38,979 bases of DNA, taken from sequence record NC_031937.1; one strand, given 5' to 3'. Positions 2,925-25,794 of the stretch are shown here, piece by piece. The DNA is from Escherichia phage LM33_P1. Within the stretch, counting starts at the first letter, position 1. The number at the start of each line of letters is the position of its first letter. Position numbers and translations under genes: made by a program. Under the pieces are notes generated by a model, which was not told the DNA's origin, ran no database searches, and saw only the letters and a list, made by a program, of their open reading frames with translations.

Positions 2925-4892
2925 ATGAGCGTCATCTCTATTGACAAGCACGACTTCTCTGATGTGTCGAACGCCATTGAGCCGTTTAACCTACTGGCTG
3001 ACCACTACGGGCAAGACATTGCAGTCAAACAGCTTCAGCTTGAGCACGAGGCATACACTGAAGGCGAGCGACGTTTCATCAAGAACCTTGAGAGACAGAC
3101 TGAGCGAGGGGAACTGGCAGACAATCAGGTCGCCAAGCCTTTGATGCAGACTCTGGTCCCTAAGATTGCGCAAGCCGTCAAGGAGTGGCATGAAGGTCCA
3201 GACGGGAAGCTGTCAACCTCTCGTCCGAGCGTAGCGTTCACCATGTTGAGCACTGAAGAGAAGGCCGTAAAGGTCCGCTCTTTGCGCATCTCCTGCGAGT
3301 CTGCTGCGGTTATCATATTGAAGGTCATACTCTCCAAGCTGGTCAAGCCTGAAGGGATACCGATTACACCGATGGCCTCAGCGATAGGTCGCACACTTGA
3401 GGACGAAATCCGCTTCGGTCGCATCCGTGACAAGGAGAAAGAGCACTTCAAGAAGGCGATAGCTGATAACCTGAATAAGCGGGCCGGGGCGTCCTACAAG
3501 AAAGCCTACATGCAAGCGGTCGAGGCATCCATGCTGGAGCAAGGCCAACTGGAAGATGCGTGGGGGACTTGGAGTCCGACCGAGGCTGTCCACGTTGGAA
3601 TCAAGATGCTGGAGATTGTCATCCAGTCCACACAACTGGTCGAGCTTAAGCGTTACGGTGCTGGCAATGCAGCGGCTGACGTTGAGATGGTCCACCTGTC
3701 AGACTTCTGGGTCAAGAAGATGGCACAACGAGGATTCAGCCTTGCGGGTATAGCTCCAGTCTACCAGCCTTGCGTCGTTCCACCTAAGCCGTGGACTGGT
3801 GTCGTAGGCGGTGGGTACTGGGCCAAAGGACGCAGACCATTACCACTGATTCGCTTAGGGTCTAAGTCTGCGGTAGCACGCTACGAAGACGTGTATATGC
3901 CTGAAGTCTATGACGCTGTGAACATCATTCAGAATACACCTTGGAAAGTGAACAAGAAGGTTCTGGAAGTGGTGAACATGGTCGAGAAGCTGAACAACAC
4001 GCCTATTGATGACATCCCTCAGATGGAACCGCTGAAGCCTGAGGACTATGCGGGTGAGACTGAAGAAGAACTCAAGGCATGGAAGAAGGCTGCTGCTGGT
4101 ATCTATCGCCGCGAGAAGGCCAGACAGTCACGAAGATTGTCACTGAGCTTTATCGTCAACCAAGCGAACAAGTTCTCTCAGTTCAAGGCCATCTGGTTCC
4201 CGTATAACATGGACTGGCGCGGTCGCGTCTACGCTGTGCCGATGTTCAACCCTCAGGGTAACGACATGCAAAAGGGTCTTCTGACTCTGGCAGTCGGTAA
4301 GCCTATTGGTGCTGATGGTTTCAAATGGCTGAAGGTCCACGGTGCAAACTGCGCGGGTGTCGATAAAGTCACCTTCGAGGAGCGTATCAAGTGGGTGGAA
4401 GATAACCACGACAACATCATGGCTGCTGCCAAGGCACCGATGGATAGCATTGAGTGGTGGGGCAAGTTAGACTCTCCGTTCTGCTTCCTAGCGTTCTGCT
4501 TCGAGTATGCTGGCGTAATGCACCACGGCTTGTCTTACTCCTGCTCGCTGCCGATAGCGTTCGATGGGTCCTGCTCTGGGATTCAGCACTTCAGCGCTAT
4601 GCTTCGCGACCACATCGGTGGACATGCAGTAAACCTGACGCCATCCGGTAAGGTCCAAGACATCTACCGCATCGTGTCTGACCGCATTGAGGAGGAGCTT
4701 AAAGTCCTACTGGTTAACGGTACGGACAACGAGATGGTAACTCACGAGGACAAGAAAACTGGTGAGATTACCGAGCGTCTCAAGCTGGGGACACGAGAGC
4801 TTGCCCGTCAGTGGCTGACCTACGGTATGTCACGAAAGGTCACTAAGCGTTCGGTCATGACTCTGGCCTACGGGTCGAAAGAGTACGGCTGA
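2925..4892 (+). CDS. 1: T7-like single-subunit DNA-directed RNA polymerase, N-terminal 655 codons, ends at in-frame TGA
   Basis: Collinear similarity to T7 RNAP; ORF terminates ...MTLAYGSKEYG* where T7 continues ...GSKEFGFRQQ. Confidence 0.9.
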   Translation: MSVISIDKHDFSDVSNAIEPFNLLADHYGQDIAVKQLQLEHEAYTEGERRFIKNLERQTERGELADNQVAKPLMQTLVPKIAQAVKEWHEGPDGKLSTSRPSVAFTMLSTEEKAVKVRSLRISCESAAVIILKVILSKLVKPEGIPITPMASAIGRTLEDEIRFGRIRDKEKEHFKKAIADNLNKRAGASYKKAYMQAVEASMLEQGQLEDAWGTWSPTEAVHVGIKMLEIVIQSTQLVELKRYGAGNAAADVEMVHLSDFWVKKMAQRGFSLAGIAPVYQPCVVPPKPWTGVVGGGYWAKGRRPLPLIRLGSKSAVARYEDVYMPEVYDAVNIIQNTPWKVNKKVLEVVNMVEKLNNTPIDDIPQMEPLKPEDYAGETEEELKAWKKAAAGIYRREKARQSRRLSLSFIVNQANKFSQFKAIWFPYNMDWRGRVYAVPMFNPQGNDMQKGLLTLAVGKPIGADGFKWLKVHGANCAGVDKVTFEERIKWVEDNHDNIMAAAKAPMDSIEWWGKLDSPFCFLAFCFEYAGVMHHGLSYSCSLPIAFDGSCSGIQHFSAMLRDHIGGHAVNLTPSGKVQDIYRIVSDRIEEELKVLLVNGTDNEMVTHEDKKTGEITERLKLGTRELARQWLTYGMSRKVTKRSVMTLAYGSKEYG

Positions 4893-4926
4893 GGACATCG
4901 TGATGCCAGGGACATCGTGATGCCAG
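4893..4926 (+). repeat. Perfect 17-nt tandem direct repeat (GGACATCGTGATGCCAG x2) inside the RNAP gene
   Basis: Read directly; lies immediately 3' of the in-frame TGA (4890-4892). Confidence 0.9.
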
Positions 4927-5606
4927 CGATTGACTCAGGGTCTGGCGCTATGTTCACTGAACCAAGCCAAGCATCTCGCTTCATGGCTAAGATGATTTGG
5001 GAAGCTGTGAGTGTGACCGTAGTTGCTGCGGTTGACGCGATGAAATGGCTTCAGGGTGCTGCCAAGCTGCTTGCTGCTGAAGTGAAGGACAAGAAGACTG
5101 GAGAAATCCTGAAGCCTTGTCTTCCGGTACACTGGGTCACACCTGATGGTTTCCCTGTCTGGCAGGAATACCGCAAGAAGGACACCACTCGTCTGAACCT
5201 GATGTTCTTAGGGTCATTCAACCTTCAGCCTACCGTCAACAAAGGCACGAAGAAAGAGCTGGACAAGCACAAGCAGGAGTCAGGCATTAGCCCGAACTTC
5301 GTCCACTCACAAGATGGTAGCCACCTCCGCAAGACTGTAGTCCACACGCACCGCAAATATGGCGTGATGTCATTCGCAGTGATTCACGATAGCTTCGGGA
5401 CCATCCCGGCTGACGCTGAGTATCTGTTCCGTGGAGTCCGTGAGACGATGGTCGAGACCTACCGCGACAACGATGTGCTGCTTGACTTCTACGAGCAGTT
5501 TGAATACCAGCTTCACGAGAGCCAGAGAGACAAGTTGCCTGAGCTTCCGAAGAAAGGTAAACTGAATATCGAAGACATCTTGTCTTCAGACTTTGCATTC
5601 GCTTAA
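4917..5606 (+). CDS. 1: T7-like RNA polymerase, C-terminal 229 codons (same frame as N-terminal part)
   Basis: Similarity to T7 RNAP C-terminus through ...HDSFGTIPADA... to terminal FAFA; same frame as 2925..4892, separated by TGA plus 8 codons. Confidence 0.88.
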   Translation: MMPAIDSGSGAMFTEPSQASRFMAKMIWEAVSVTVVAAVDAMKWLQGAAKLLAAEVKDKKTGEILKPCLPVHWVTPDGFPVWQEYRKKDTTRLNLMFLGSFNLQPTVNKGTKKELDKHKQESGISPNFVHSQDGSHLRKTVVHTHRKYGVMSFAVIHDSFGTIPADAEYLFRGVRETMVETYRDNDVLLDFYEQFEYQLHESQRDKLPELPKKGKLNIEDILSSDFAFA

Positions 5607-11103: not shown

Positions 11104-11182
11104 GTCTCCATAGCTCAAACGGTAGAGCGGCGGGTCGTGATGGCCTATTGCGATTAGGGTTCGAATCCCCGTGGAGACGCCA
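11104..11182 (+). tRNA. tRNA-like element (7-bp acceptor stem, canonical D-arm, T-loop GGTTCGAATCC, encoded CCA; anticodon arm non-canonical)
   Basis: GTCTCCA...TGGAGAC acceptor pairing, D-arm GCTC-AAACGGTA-GAGC, T-arm TAGGG-TTCGAAT-CCCCG, 3' GCCA; 76 nt plus CCA; no well-paired anticodon stem found by hand (candidate loops UCGUGAU or UUGCGAU). Confidence 0.5.
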
Positions 11183-20102: not shown

Positions 20103-20987
20103 ATGTCCCAATCAGTTTATGCCGAGTTCGGCGTTAGTCCTAATGCAATCACTGGTTCCGTTGAGGACCTGAACGAACACCAGAAGTCTATGCTTGAACA
20201 GGACGTAGCTGTTCGTGATGGCGATGACGCTATTACCTTCAAGCAACTGGAAGCCGAAAACGAAGAGGCTACCGAAGAAGACGAGAACGTCGAAGAGACT
20301 GAAGGTGAAGAAGACCACGAGTCAGATGATGAAGAGTCTGAGACCGATGGTGAGCAGCCGGAGTTCATCGAACTAGGTGATGCGCCGAAAGAGCTGACTG
20401 AAAGTGTCACCGCTCTGGATGAAAACGAAGCTGCATTCGACGACATGGTGTCTTCTGCTGTAGAAGCTGGCAAGGTCACTGCTGATGAAATTACCGCTAT
20501 CAAGGCTGAATACGCCAAGGACGGTAAGCTGTCTGACGCATCCTACGCTAAGTTGCAGGAAGCAGGTTACACAAAGCGTTTCGTAGATTCGTTTGTCCGT
20601 GGTCAGGAAGCTCTGGCTGAACAGTATGCTGCTGGTGTGGTTCGCTACGCTGGTGGTGCTGAACAGTTTAATCGCATCCTGTCACACCTTGAGTCCAACG
20701 ACCCGTCAACTCGTGAAGCATTGGAAGCTGCCATCGTTCGTAAGGACATTGCGACTACCAAAGCTCTGCTGAATCTGGCTGGCAAGACTCTGGGTAAAGC
20801 TGTAGGCGTTAAACCTCAGCGTACCATCACCAATCAGGCTAAACCTGTGGTTGCACCTAAGGCTCCTCAGACCGAAGCATTCAGCTCCAAGGCTGACATG
20901 ATTAAGGCTATGAGTGACCCGCGATACCTGCGTGACGCTAAGTACACGATGGAAGTTCGAGCTAAGGTAGCTGCCTCAAGCCTGTAG
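20103..20987 (+). CDS. 9: Capsid assembly (scaffolding) protein
   Basis: Similarity to T7 gp9 (acidic E/D-rich centre, ..SYAKL.E.GYTK.F.DS..RGQEAL.EQY, C-terminal AMSDPRY..DA.Y); start at ATG after RBS AAAGGAGAG (track ORF begins 20070). Confidence 0.88.
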   Translation: MSQSVYAEFGVSPNAITGSVEDLNEHQKSMLEQDVAVRDGDDAITFKQLEAENEEATEEDENVEETEGEEDHESDDEESETDGEQPEFIELGDAPKELTESVTALDENEAAFDDMVSSAVEAGKVTADEITAIKAEYAKDGKLSDASYAKLQEAGYTKRFVDSFVRGQEALAEQYAAGVVRYAGGAEQFNRILSHLESNDPSTREALEAAIVRKDIATTKALLNLAGKTLGKAVGVKPQRTITNQAKPVVAPKAPQTEAFSSKADMIKAMSDPRYLRDAKYTMEVRAKVAASSL

Positions 20988-20988
20988 G

Positions 20989-21011
20989 ACTAAACTATCA
21001 CTATAGGGAGA
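20989..21011 (+). promoter_or_regulatory. Phage RNAP promoter, exact class III-like (CTAAACTATCACTATAGGGAGACC) upstream of capsid gene
   Basis: Best consensus match; followed by 5' stem-loop GGGAGACC...GGTTTCCC and AT-rich leader, as for T7 phi10. Confidence 0.8.
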
Positions 21012-22164: not shown

Positions 22165-22427
22165 CGACCTTTAAGGCCCTCTCTACAGAGGGTCCTACCT
22201 TAGAGACGTATAGTTCTACGGTGGGAACCAGCCTGAAGGTTGACTTCCCTGAGCTTTCAGATGTGACCGATTGGTCGCTGCTTGAGGTGACTACGCCTGA
22301 TGGTGTTAGCTACTCCCGTAGAACCAACAGTCTCTACTTCAAGGCCACCTCTGGCGTGGAAGGTCTGGTGATTGTTGGGTATGACGGGACGCCTGTGCGT
22401 TCCTTCAACGTATCTTTCACAAACTAA
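22137..22427 (+). CDS. 10: Capsid 10B C-terminal extension reached by -1 frameshift at GGTTTTC
   Basis: -1 frame is open from the slippery run GGTTTTC (22137-22143) to TAA at 22427; same arrangement as T7 10A/10B. Confidence 0.55.
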   Translation, partial: GFHSGVSGLTTFKALSTEGPTLETYSSTVGTSLKVDFPELSDVTDWSLLEVTTPDGVSYSRRTNSLYFKATSGVEGLVIVGYDGTPVRSFNVSFTN

Positions 22428-22430
22428 TTG

Positions 22431-22470
22431 AAACCCCTTGGGTGCCTTCGGGTGCTTGAGGGGTTTTTTT
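22431..22470 (+). terminator. T-phi-like terminator for phage RNAP (G-U-rich hairpin plus T7 tract)
   Basis: AACCCCTTGGGTGCCTTCGGGTGCTTGAGGGGTTTTTTTG closely resembles T7 T-phi. Confidence 0.85.
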
Positions 22471-22586: not shown

Positions 22587-23153
22587 ATGGCTCAATACAT
22601 TCCACTGAATGCTAACGATGACTTAGATGCCATCAACGATATGTTAGCAGCTATCGGTGAACCAGCAGTCCTACAGCTTGACGAAGGTAACGCTGACGTC
22701 TCGAACGCTCAACGTATCCTGCATCGTGTCAATCGTCAGGTCCAAGCTAAAGGCTGGAACTTTAACATCAACGAAGCTGCTGTCCTGACGCCTGATGTCC
22801 AAGACAACAGGATTAGATTCCTGCCGTCTTACCTTCGGGTCATGACTGCTGGTGCTACCAGTTACTACAGCAACATGGGGGGCTATCTCTATGACCTGTC
22901 CACTCAGTCCACGACCTTCACTGGACCAATTACAGTCGAACTGGTGGAGATGAAACCGTTCGCTGAGATGCCTGTAGTATTCCGTGACTACATCGTTACC
23001 AAGGCTAGCCGTGAGTTCAACGCTAAGTTCTTCGGTAGCCCAGAGTCTGAACTGTACCTTCGTGAGCAGGAAGCAGAACTCTATCAGCAGGTTATGGAAT
23101 ACGAGATGGACACTGGTCGCTACAACATGATGTCTGACATTGGGAGGGACTAA
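22587..23153 (+). CDS. 11: Tail tubular protein A
   Basis: Similarity to T7 gp11 (..ND.L..IGEP.V..L..G); RBS TAAGGAG. Confidence 0.85.
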   Translation: MAQYIPLNANDDLDAINDMLAAIGEPAVLQLDEGNADVSNAQRILHRVNRQVQAKGWNFNINEAAVLTPDVQDNRIRFLPSYLRVMTAGATSYYSNMGGYLYDLSTQSTTFTGPITVELVEMKPFAEMPVVFRDYIVTKASREFNAKFFGSPESELYLREQEAELYQQVMEYEMDTGRYNMMSDIGRD

Positions 23154-23380
23154 TGGCTAGTCACAACCTGAAGATTCACCGCCAGCACTTTGGTCCGGTA
23201 CAGCTAGGTCTAAAGACAGCAGAGCTGAGACTTAACGACCGGGACTTTAAGGTTGGCGACTGGCTTATCCTGAATGAGTGGGACAACGGGTATACTGGAC
23301 AACAGGTAGCACGTAAGGTTGTCCACATTGCTGACGTTGGTGACATCGCTGAGGGATACGTCCTAATGAGTATGATTTAA
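23153..23380 (+). CDS. Small ASCH/PUA-like (DUF3850-type) protein (75 aa)
   Basis: Pattern LKIH...F.....G.KT.E.R.NDRDF.VGD.L.L.EWD...YTG......V..I recalled as typical of ASCH-like domains; ATG overlaps gp11 stop (TAATG). Confidence 0.6.
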   Translation: MASHNLKIHRQHFGPVQLGLKTAELRLNDRDFKVGDWLILNEWDNGYTGQQVARKVVHIADVGDIAEGYVLMSMI

Positions 23381-23389
23381 GGAGGGCAT

Positions 23390-25747
23390 ATGCCGCTTAT
23401 TACGCAAAGCATAAAAAATCTTAAGGGTGGCATTAGCCAACAGCCTGACATCCTGAGGTTCTCAGACCAAGGCGAGGCTCAAGTTAACTGCTGGTCATCC
23501 GAGAGTGATGGCCTCCAGAAGCGTCCACCTACAGTCTTCAAGCGACGTCTTAACATCGACGTTGGGAGCAACCCTAAGTTCCACCTGATTAACCGTGATG
23601 AGCAGGAGCAGTATTACATCGTGTTCAACGGGTCCAACATTCAGGTAGTCGACTTGAGCGGTAATCAATACTCAGTTTCAGGTGCGGTAGACTACGTTAA
23701 GTCGTCCAACCCGCGAGATGACATCCGTGTCGTTACAGTTGCAGACTATACGTTCATCGTGAACCGTAAGGTTGTCGTTAACGGTGGAAGCGAGAAGTCA
23801 CACTCTGGTTATAATCGTAAAGCTCGTGCTTTAATTAACCTGCGTGGTGGACAGTATGGTCGCACCCTTAAGGTAGGAATCAACGGAGGCGTTAAGGTTT
23901 CGCATAAGTTGCCAGCAGGTAATGATGCCGAGAATGACCCTCCTAAGGTTGATGCTCAGGCTATCGGTGCAGCTCTGAGAGACCTTCTTGTTGCTGCTTA
24001 CCCTACCTTCACGTTCGACCTTGGGTCTGGATTCCTGTTAATCACTGCCCCTTCAGGGACTGACATTAACTCAGTGGAGACGGAGGATGGCTACGCTAAC
24101 CAGCTAATCAGCCCAGTACTCGACACGGTGCAAACAATCTCTAAGCTGCCTCTTGCAGCTCCAAATGGGTACATCATTAAGATTCAAGGTGAGACCAACA
24201 GTAGCGCCGATGAGTATTACGTGATGTATGACTCCAACACTAAGACGTGGAAGGAGACAGTAGAGCCGGGAGTGGTCACTGGGTTCGATAACACCACAAT
24301 GCCACATGCTCTGGTTAGACAATCTGACGGCTCCTTTGAGTTCAAGACTCTGGACTGGTCTAAGCGGGGTGCTGGTAATGATGACACAAACCCTATGCCT
24401 AGCTTCGTGGATGCTACGATTAACGATGTGTTCTTCTACAGGAACAGGCTAGGGTTCTTGTCAGGAGAGAACGTAATCATGAGCCGTTCAGCCAGCTACT
24501 TTGCGTTCTTCCCTAAGAGTGTGGCGACATTGAGTGATGATGACCCTATTGACGTAGCTGTAAGTCACCCTAGAATCTCAATACTTAAGTATGCCGTTCC
24601 GTTTAGCGAGCAGCTACTACTTTGGTCAGATGAGGTGCAGTTCGTGATGACAAGCTCGGGGGTCCTTACCTCGAAGTCTATCCAGCTTGATGTAGGCTCA
24701 GAGTTTGCCTTAGGAGATAACGCCAGACCGTTCGCTGTAGGACGCTCAGTCTTCTTCTCAGCGCCTCGTGGATCATTCACCAGTATTAAGCGATACTTCG
24801 CTGTAGCAGATGTGTCTGACGTGAAGGATGCCGATGATACCACTGGTCACGTACTGTCCTATATCCCTAACGGGGTGTTTGACATTCAAGGTACAGGGAC
24901 TGAGAACTACATCTGCGTCAACTCCACAGGTGCATACAACCGAATCTACATCTACAAGTTCTTGTTTAAGGACGGCGTACAACTTCAAGCCTCTTGGTCG
25001 CACTGGGAGTTCCCTAAAGCTGATAAGATTCTGGCGTCTGCGTCGATTGGCTCTACCATGTTCATTGTTCGTCAGCACCAATGGGGTGTGGACATTGAGC
25101 ACCTTAAGTTCATCAAGGAGGCAACCGACTTTCCATTAGAGCCGTATAGACTCCACGTTGACTCTAAGGTGTCTATGGTAATCCCAATTGGCTCATATAA
25201 CGCTGACACCTATGAGACTACGGTCGACATTGGTTCTGCTTATGGTGGAAACGCTCCGTCTCCCGGTCGGTACTATCTGATTGACAGTCAGGGTGCCTAT
25301 GTGGACCTTGGTGAACTGACCAACATCTCAACTGTGGCTATACTCAATGGCGATTGGTCGGGACGTACAGTGTTCATCGGACGGTCTTATCTGATGTCCT
25401 ACAAGTTCTCACGGTTCCTGATTAAGATTGAAGACGATAGTGGCACTCAGTCTGAAGACACTGGACGTCTACAGCTTCGTAGGGCTTGGGTCAACTACAA
25501 GGACACTGGCGCTCTTAGACTCATTGTCAGAAACGGTGAGCGGGAGTTCGTGAACACCTTTAATGGGTACACCCTTGGTCAGCAACCCATCGGGACTACC
25601 AACATTGGGGACGGTCAGTATCGCTTCGCTATGAATGGTAACGCATTAACCACGAGTCTAACCTTAGAGTCAGACTATCCTACCCCAGTGTCCATCGTTG
25701 GGTGTGGCTGGGAGGCGTCATACGCTAAGAAAGCTCGTTCCGTCTAA
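23390..25747 (+). CDS. 12: Tail tubular protein B
   Basis: Size (785 aa), synteny and similarity to T7 gp12; RBS TAAGGAGGG. Confidence 0.9.
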   Translation: MPLITQSIKNLKGGISQQPDILRFSDQGEAQVNCWSSESDGLQKRPPTVFKRRLNIDVGSNPKFHLINRDEQEQYYIVFNGSNIQVVDLSGNQYSVSGAVDYVKSSNPRDDIRVVTVADYTFIVNRKVVVNGGSEKSHSGYNRKARALINLRGGQYGRTLKVGINGGVKVSHKLPAGNDAENDPPKVDAQAIGAALRDLLVAAYPTFTFDLGSGFLLITAPSGTDINSVETEDGYANQLISPVLDTVQTISKLPLAAPNGYIIKIQGETNSSADEYYVMYDSNTKTWKETVEPGVVTGFDNTTMPHALVRQSDGSFEFKTLDWSKRGAGNDDTNPMPSFVDATINDVFFYRNRLGFLSGENVIMSRSASYFAFFPKSVATLSDDDPIDVAVSHPRISILKYAVPFSEQLLLWSDEVQFVMTSSGVLTSKSIQLDVGSEFALGDNARPFAVGRSVFFSAPRGSFTSIKRYFAVADVSDVKDADDTTGHVLSYIPNGVFDIQGTGTENYICVNSTGAYNRIYIYKFLFKDGVQLQASWSHWEFPKADKILASASIGSTMFIVRQHQWGVDIEHLKFIKEATDFPLEPYRLHVDSKVSMVIPIGSYNADTYETTVDIGSAYGGNAPSPGRYYLIDSQGAYVDLGELTNISTVAILNGDWSGRTVFIGRSYLMSYKFSRFLIKIEDDSGTQSEDTGRLQLRRAWVNYKDTGALRLIVRNGEREFVNTFNGYTLGQQPIGTTNIGDGQYRFAMNGNALTTSLTLESDYPTPVSIVGCGWEASYAKKARSV

Positions 25748-25771
25748 CTTATTGAAGGGCCTATAGATTTA

Positions 25772-25794
25772 CCTTAACTATCACTATAGGGACT
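25772..25794 (+). promoter_or_regulatory. Phage RNAP promoter (CCTTAACTATCACTATAGGGACT)
   Basis: Consensus match; position equivalent to T7 phi13. Confidence 0.75.

Follow-up and report, generated by a model that had tools for sequence, protein, structure and literature searches.

A stand-alone DUF3850 (minimal ASCH) gene between tail tubular genes 11 and 12 of Escherichia phage LM33_P1

What is a 75-residue protein with the appearance of a nucleic-acid-related factor doing between the two tail tubular genes of a T7-like phage, and what might it contribute there? The question is raised by a small open reading frame of Escherichia phage LM33_P1, which a first-pass annotation made from the sequence had likened to ASCH/DUF3850 proteins and had described as unexpected within the structural cluster. 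The window analysed here is the whole 38,979-nucleotide stretch of record NC_031937.1. As judged from the annotation of the 99.6% identical HC13, its gene order is T7-like, comprising ocr, RNA polymerase, ligase, ssDNA-binding protein, primase/helicase, DNA polymerase and exonuclease, followed by portal, scaffold, capsid, genes 11, 12 and 13–16, tail spike, holin and terminase. As LM33_P1 is a phage-therapy candidate, an accessory gene related to nucleic acids deserves a functional check.

The gene and its expression

The reading frame (Table 1) runs on the plus strand from an ATG to a TAA and encodes 75 residues with a mass of 8.5 kDa, VGDWLILNEWDNGYTGQQVAR being an example of its tryptic peptides. 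Its ATG overlaps the TAA of gene 11 by one base (cTAATGg), the purine-rich stretch GGGAGGG lies 5 nt upstream of it, and gene 12 starts 9 nt beyond its stop codon, preceded by AAGGAGGG. Length, extent and TAATG coupling had been given in the same way by the first-pass annotation, and every detail was borne out in the sequence, as was the location between two tail tubular genes, since the flanking products gp11 and gp12 match the Pfam families Tube and Phage_nozzle. From this arrangement, gene 11.05, as the orthologue in Citrobacter phage CR44b is called, is translationally coupled to gene 11.

The protein was recognised by the Pfam profile DUF3850 (PF12961) with 70.1 bits (E 1.9e-19; residues 4–73 on profile positions 2–76/77) and by ASCH (PF04266, PUA-like clan) with 26.2 bits, both above the curated gathering scores of 22.9 and 21.2 bits, respectively, so that the resemblance first noticed in the sequence is upheld by both families. 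The motif string on which that resemblance had been based agrees with the translation, and at 70.1 bits the similarity is far above chance. Further matches were obtained with PHROG 986 (E 2.8e-35) and, by sequence, with the solved structure PDB 3IUW (E 1e-10 when the protein was searched alone, 4.7e-26 with the family profile).

Variation among 13 orthologues taken from related phages is concentrated at third codon positions, which account for 40 of the 63 variable sites. The dN/dS ratio of the gene (Nei-Gojobori) is 0.16–0.17, while that of gene 11 is 0.03–0.04; the DUF3850 gene is under clear purifying selection, weaker than the constraint on gene 11. An antisense reading frame at 23176–23346 was rejected, as the pattern of variation by codon position fits the plus-strand frame. 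A search for an RNA element in the region gave no Rfam match and a folding z-score of just -2.0.

The phage promoter repeat CTAAACTATCACTATAGGGA has no copy between the phi10-type and phi13-type sites, which leaves the DUF3850 gene without a promoter of its own. Because an intrinsic terminator also stands ahead of gene 11, genes 11, 11.05 and 12 would be made late, by terminator read-through. In T7, genes 11 and 12 are likewise expressed late through terminator read-through. Between the major capsid gene and this terminator lies a 68-aa reading frame (22221–22427, plus strand; PHROG 7473, E 4e-35), called a hypothetical protein in relatives, which takes the place of the T7 10B frameshift extension.

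Two further features of the genome were recorded. The phage RNA polymerase gene 1 (2925–5606) carries an in-frame TGA at 4890–4892, giving reading frames 2925–4892 and 4917–5606 in the same frame; in comparison with HC13, 19 nt at 4886–4908 are replaced by a copy of the following 17 nt (GGACATCGTGATGCCAG, now in tandem), with the frame kept. As the gene is essential, a viable genotype seems less likely here than an artefact of assembly or consensus calling, or a local conversion. Immediately 5' of the primase/helicase gene, a tRNA-like gene at 11104–11182 (plus strand) scored 36.7 bits with the Rfam tRNA model (gathering score 29) and was read by ARAGORN as a 79-nt tRNA-Thr(CGT) whose CCA end is encoded. 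Such a gene is unusual in a T7-like phage, and nine other Kayfunavirus genomes used for comparison do not have it; copies at least 95% identical occur in about 31 phage records under the labels tRNA-Thr, tRNA-Pseudo or tRNA-OTHER.

Table 1. Features at and around the DUF3850 locus of LM33_P1 (coordinates of the window)
Feature	Position	Strand	Basis
Phage-RNAP promoter, phi10-type copy of the CTAAACTATCACTATAGGGA consensus, 5' of gene 10	20984..21008	+	11-copy repeat family D1/D3; EcoDS1 promoter annotation
T-phi-like intrinsic terminator, 17-bp stem then T run, between capsid genes and gene 11	22430..22467	+	Terminator scan; EcoDS1 terminator at the same relative position
Gene 11, tail tubular protein A, 188 aa	22587..23153	+	Pfam Tube, E 6.1e-46; stop overlaps start of DUF3850 gene
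Shine-Dalgarno sequence GGGAGGG of DUF3850 gene	23142..23148	+	Sequence; LM33_P1/K1F alignment; serves gene 12 in K1F
Gene 11.05-type CDS, 75-aa stand-alone DUF3850/minimal ASCH domain	23153..23380	+	Profile matches, model, conservation
237-bp cassette relative to the empty K1F site; ends with AAGGAGGGCATATG, which starts gene 12	23156..23392	+	Alignments with K1F, KM02 and LI10P1
Gene 12, tail tubular protein B/nozzle, 785 aa	23390..25747	+	Pfam Phage_nozzle, E 0
Phage promoter, phi13-type, 3' of gene 12 and before gene 13	25767..25791	+	Repeat family D1/D3; EcoDS1 phi13 annotation

An insertion slot between genes 11 and 12

Comparison with phage K1F bears on how the gene came to lie in this position. 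In K1F, which is without the DUF3850 gene, the TAA of gene 11 overlaps the ATG of gene 12 directly, and LM33_P1 has exactly 237 bp more, immediately 3' of the old gene 12 ATG; the boundaries of this cassette can slide by three common bases (ATG). The cassette has captured the old Shine-Dalgarno (SD) sequence and start codon of gene 12 and has brought replacements for both. In KM02 and the Hafnia phage yong1, an additional 418 bp with an HNH endonuclease gene separate the DUF3850 stop codon from gene 12, and this insert has the same architecture, beginning after an ATG and ending in a new SD and ATG. A deletion remnant was recognised in LI10P1, in which only the initial 17 nt of the DUF3850 gene survive, joined to the 3' portion of the HNH gene. 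At the sites of the slot (23142–23155 and 23379–23392 of the window; 600–1279 of the KM02 locus), a new GGAGG...ATG restores the start of the downstream gene. The recurring design of the two inserts suggests cassette exchange by recombination at SD/ATG microhomology. In 12 Kayfunavirus genomes, a small sample, dS is 0.18 in the cassette compared with 0.55 in the neighbouring 3' portion of gene 11 and 0.40 in the 5' portion of gene 12, a difference that suggests either a younger age of the cassette relative to its flanks or its spread by recombination.

A 1114-bp query around the gene matched more than 200 other records of K1F-like Autographiviridae at 80–99%, and about three quarters of the related records (153–162 of approximately 215) carry the gene. 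Of 48 close relatives sampled at even spacing, approximately 38 had the cassette, seven an empty site, two the cassette with the HNH gene and one the remnant. Empty sites were found in K1F, 216Ecol046PP, pO2, YZ1, BUCT788, phiHAO2-2 and MirsaeidiM_Esher2, and the gene is dispensable in the genus. The more distant relatives Dev2, GW1, SFPH2, SH3-5 and the T7-like SH1 have no insert, so the empty state is probably ancestral; T7 is also without the gene. Orthologues occupy the identical slot in CR44b, EcoDS1, Vec13, FFK3, JSS1 and other members of Kayfunavirus, most with 96–100% protein identity to the LM33_P1 copy, whereas the CR44b copy is only about 44% identical. They are already labelled in public records as 11.05 (CR44b), "RNA-binding protein", "DUF3850 domain-containing protein" or "activating signal cointegrator". 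The identification is correct and the biology ordinary, with both the gene and its domain assignment present in the annotations of the genus; to call the gene unexpected was an overstatement, given its presence in about three quarters of the related phages, its prior annotation and the role of the gene 11/12 junction, in the late operon, as a general insertion slot prone to recombination.

When gene content was compared between four carrier and six non-carrier Kayfunavirus genomes, no reading frame other than the gene itself tracked its presence. A 3195-nt gene 17 was seen in four of the six non-carriers (K1F, 216Ecol046PP, BUCT788 and phiHAO2-2), two of these being annotated as K1F-like tail spike/endosialidase, and phiHAO1-1 combines an endosialidase spike with the cassette. 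The empty site may mark a K1F sub-lineage, though phiHAO1-1 runs counter to this.

Fold, signature residues and characterised relatives

The 75-residue protein is a miniature ASCH/PUA-like (DUF3850) domain. An AlphaFold2 model computed from a 51-sequence alignment (pLDDT 96.7) consists of a five-stranded barrel and one helix, that is, the PUA-like beta-barrel of the ASCH superfamily and the fold of the solved DUF3850 member 3IUW, and the BFVD matches are all viral DUF3850/ASCH proteins. The first-pass annotation was prepared to abandon its assignment if neither a profile match nor a related fold appeared; both did. The ASCH octapeptide GxKxxExR is present as G19-L-K21-T-A-E24-L-R26, in register with GRKTITIR of the E. 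coli enzyme YqfB, and the DUF3850 signature HxLK...G.KT.E.R.NDR..(x)GD..L.E is found in full. In an alignment of the profile of 51 homologues with YqfB, K21/E24/R26 fall on K21/T24/R26, and a GD further downstream is common to both.

In 51 stand-alone homologues, each of H4, K7, K21, E24, R26, N28, D29, R30, G35, D36, L40 and E42, all present in LM33_P1, is at least 88% conserved; K21, R26 and E42 are invariant, and H4, K7, E24, D29, R30 and D36 reach at least 94%. In 74 longer homologues the signature residues are invariant except for K7 and G35 (both at least 90%). The protein is slightly acidic (pI 6.4, net charge about -1), in line with a family median pI of 6.3 and 35 acidic proteins among the 51. 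Nine conserved charged or polar residues in a chain of 75, combined with this slight acidity, are more readily reconciled with a specific ligand pocket or an active site than with a surface for general RNA binding.

The orthologue in CR44b (1796–2020 of its locus) has lost N28/D29/R30 and carries E24D, with the fold still predicted. Among IMG/VR phages, one copy (L018, 2501–2728) carries R30L, a change at a nearly invariant position, and a second (L016, 589–816) carries D31G. These three variants may be decaying or functionally shifted alleles.

Among the characterised ASCH proteins is YqfB, the N4-acetylcytidine amidohydrolase of E. coli (1TE7, 9KYF), whose catalytic residues are K21, T24, R26 and E74 (PMC9599836) and which, in complex with N4-acetylcytidine (ac4C), holds the acetylated base in a narrow pocket formed by K21, T24 and R26 (bioRxiv 10.64898/2026.08.01.741249). 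YqfB has 103 residues in comparison with 75 here, and the two proteins share 17% identity, with a sequence-only E value of about 0.2–0.3. Although K21 and R26 are present in the phage protein, position 24 is Glu rather than Thr or Ser, and no segment aligns to E74. With T24 replaced and the C-terminal third, including E74, absent, ac4C-type catalysis is unsupported and the protein is not a YqfB-type enzyme. Glu at position 24 is absolutely conserved in the TRIP4/EOLA1-like clade, and the ac4C deacetylase activity of EOLA1 is disputed between studies (bioRxiv 10.64898/2026.08.01.741249). Being in register with that Glu, E24 gives the phage protein a K-E-R version of the pocket. In YqfB and EOLA1, these three positions are catalytic or touch the ligand (PMC9599836; bioRxiv 10.64898/2026.08.01.741249). 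K21/E24/R26 agree with the TRIP4-like clade (human EOLA1/EOLA2, TRIP4/ASC-1), whereas its members are approximately twice as long and typically have Ser or Thr at position 7, where DUF3850 proteins have a nearly invariant Lys.

The structure 3IUW, an "activating signal cointegrator" of Enterococcus faecalis (NP_814290) solved by structural genomics, names the family, its function being unpublished. Fusions of a ParB-type CTPase with DUF3850 have been described in prophages and ICEs (PMC12704722; TnSmu1 smu_194c, PMC10098952). They place the same domain on mobile elements, whereas in LM33_P1 it stands alone, and no ParB, ParA or methyltransferase gene was found in this genome. The EVE, YTH and SRA/THYN1-type PUA-like readers of m6A, 5mC and 5hmC are alike in fold only; no sequence relationship and no aromatic-cage motif were identified.

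Proposed role and its alternatives

Evidence from outside the locus bears on whether the protein belongs to the particle. The mass-spectrometry matches noted in the CR44b record cover 10A, 11 and 12 and not 11.05, which is weak evidence for a protein of 8.5 kDa, and the virion proteomes of Citrobacter phages SH3 and SH4 (PMC4925675) are uninformative, both phages being without the gene. Beyond the genus, the family is large and enriched in phages and prophages (5324 cluster representatives at 50% identity), and in Drexlerviridae, P2-like and Listeria phages, together with 58 IMG/VR loci, it sits among replication and nin-region genes. Its neighbours in sipho- and myoviruses include helicase, replication initiator A, SSB, NinB, NinG, RusA, primase, Dam methylase, Mom and Gam. 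Across the 58 diverse IMG/VR loci, with 130 neighbouring reading frames from nin-region, replication and recombination genes, there was no constant partner. Fusion partners in the 74 longer homologues were DUF551 in nine, a dATP/dGTP pyrophosphohydrolase in one and DUF7415 in one, while the PHROGs of the extensions are unannotated; none of the fusions and neighbours surveyed pinpoints a substrate. Absence from viable close relatives (K1F and at least six others) and from Dev2 and SH3-5, the setting of the homologues and the CR44b mass spectrometry argue for an accessory cytoplasmic protein rather than a tail part, and the protein is probably not a component of the virion.

On these grounds, the reading preferred here, with a probability of roughly 0.6, is that of a non-structural, dispensable, cassette-borne mini-ASCH protein whose most likely activity in the infected cell is to recognise, and possibly also to hydrolyse, a modified base or nucleotide. 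The gene, its fold and motif, the structure of the cassette, dispensability and selection follow from the data above, and the class of ligand, the catalysis and the biological benefit are what we infer. The cassette would have inserted directly after the gene 12 start codon and taken over the ribosome-binding site of that gene, its 3' end supplying gene 12 with a fresh SD and ATG. The protein would then be made late, by read-through of the T-phi-like terminator, with translation coupled to that of gene 11. By analogy with characterised ASCH proteins, the conserved cluster K21-E24-R26 of strand 2, together with H4, K7, D29, R30 and E42, would form a nucleobase pocket holding a flipped-out or free nucleobase, through which a modified base or nucleotide might be recognised and perhaps hydrolysed; the protein would probably neither coat RNA nor build the tail. 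The missing C-terminal third of YqfB with E74 and the Lys at position 7 leave catalysis of the known ac4C type unsupported. The lack of a constant neighbour or fusion pointing to a substrate and the late expression also weigh against this reading. A search of the literature on DUF3850/ASCH phage proteins returned no biochemical or genetic data for this gene or any other DUF3850 protein.

The closest competitor, possible but clearly less probable, is counter-defence, in which the mini-ASCH protein would act on an immune signal derived from a nucleotide, by sequestering or hydrolysing it, or on a base sensed by a host defence, by masking or editing it; carriers would then benefit on certain hosts only. 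Accessory genes for host range or anti-defence are typically present in some and absent from other near-identical phages, as is the case here, the low dS of the cassette suggests recent recombinational spread, and a large family enriched in phages and prophages would fit as well. Expression behind the T-phi-like terminator points the other way, as late synthesis is unusual for a host-takeover or counter-defence factor. The known anti-defence genes of the T7 group are early, and we know of no described anti-defence family with an ASCH-type fold. The only PADLOC match was not significant (E 0.007, 14 bits) and no NCBIfam model matched.

Passive binding of phage or host RNA late in infection, tuning translation or RNA stability, is what the label on PHROG 986 and many GenBank records would imply, and it seems unlikely. 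Both the translation control and the epigenetic-mark sensing suggested in the first-pass annotation are speculative. The RNA-binding label is a transferred prediction; the acidity of the protein and of most homologues argues against generic RNA coating, the dense invariant charged residues resemble a pocket rather than a surface, and YqfB was reported to be without intrinsic RNA binding (bioRxiv 10.64898/2026.08.01.741249).

It is more doubtful still that the gene is selfish or hitch-hiking cargo, linked to the HNH homing endonuclease or spread through SD/ATG microhomology with little gain for the phage. Such cargo would account for the HNH gene directly after the DUF3850 gene in KM02 and yong1, for the LI10P1 remnant, which shows that both genes were once together in the slot, and for the dS difference and common design of the two inserts. 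Against it, a dN/dS of 0.17 and the fact that nearly every copy retains all the family-invariant residues point to selection acting on the protein, most carriers have no adjoining HNH gene, and in distant phages only 2 of 130 neighbouring reading frames are HNH genes. A tail-assembly factor or minor virion component acting with gp11/gp12, as the position between genes 11 and 12, the coupling to gene 11 and the late co-transcription might suggest, is very improbable and was rejected on distribution: K1F and other viable phages whose gp11/gp12 are more than 90% identical in DNA do without the gene, as do T7, Dev2 and SH3-5, homologues lie in replication and nin regions of sipho- and myoviruses with unrelated tails, and the CR44b virion notes do not flag 11.05.

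The placement of the gene reflects an ordinary insertion slot in T7-like genomes, and that observation in itself adds little. The greater interest lies in DUF3850, a domain widespread in phages and prophages whose structure has been solved and whose polar pocket is strikingly conserved. Within Kayfunavirus, nature has already set up a clean comparison of empty sites, the cassette alone, the cassette with HNH and a remnant, all in therapeutic-grade and genetically tractable phages. A broader and tentative idea is that DUF3850 is a catalytic mini-ASCH of phages and mobile elements that removes, traps or reads a specific modified base or nucleotide, for example a host-made defence signal or a damage or modification mark on nucleic acid; its natural presence or absence across Kayfunavirus, including near-isogenic pairs such as phiHAO1-1/phiHAO2-2, would make this directly testable. 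If it were true, DUF3850, with more than 5000 clusters at 50% identity, would represent a new class of counter-defence or nucleotide-sanitising factor.
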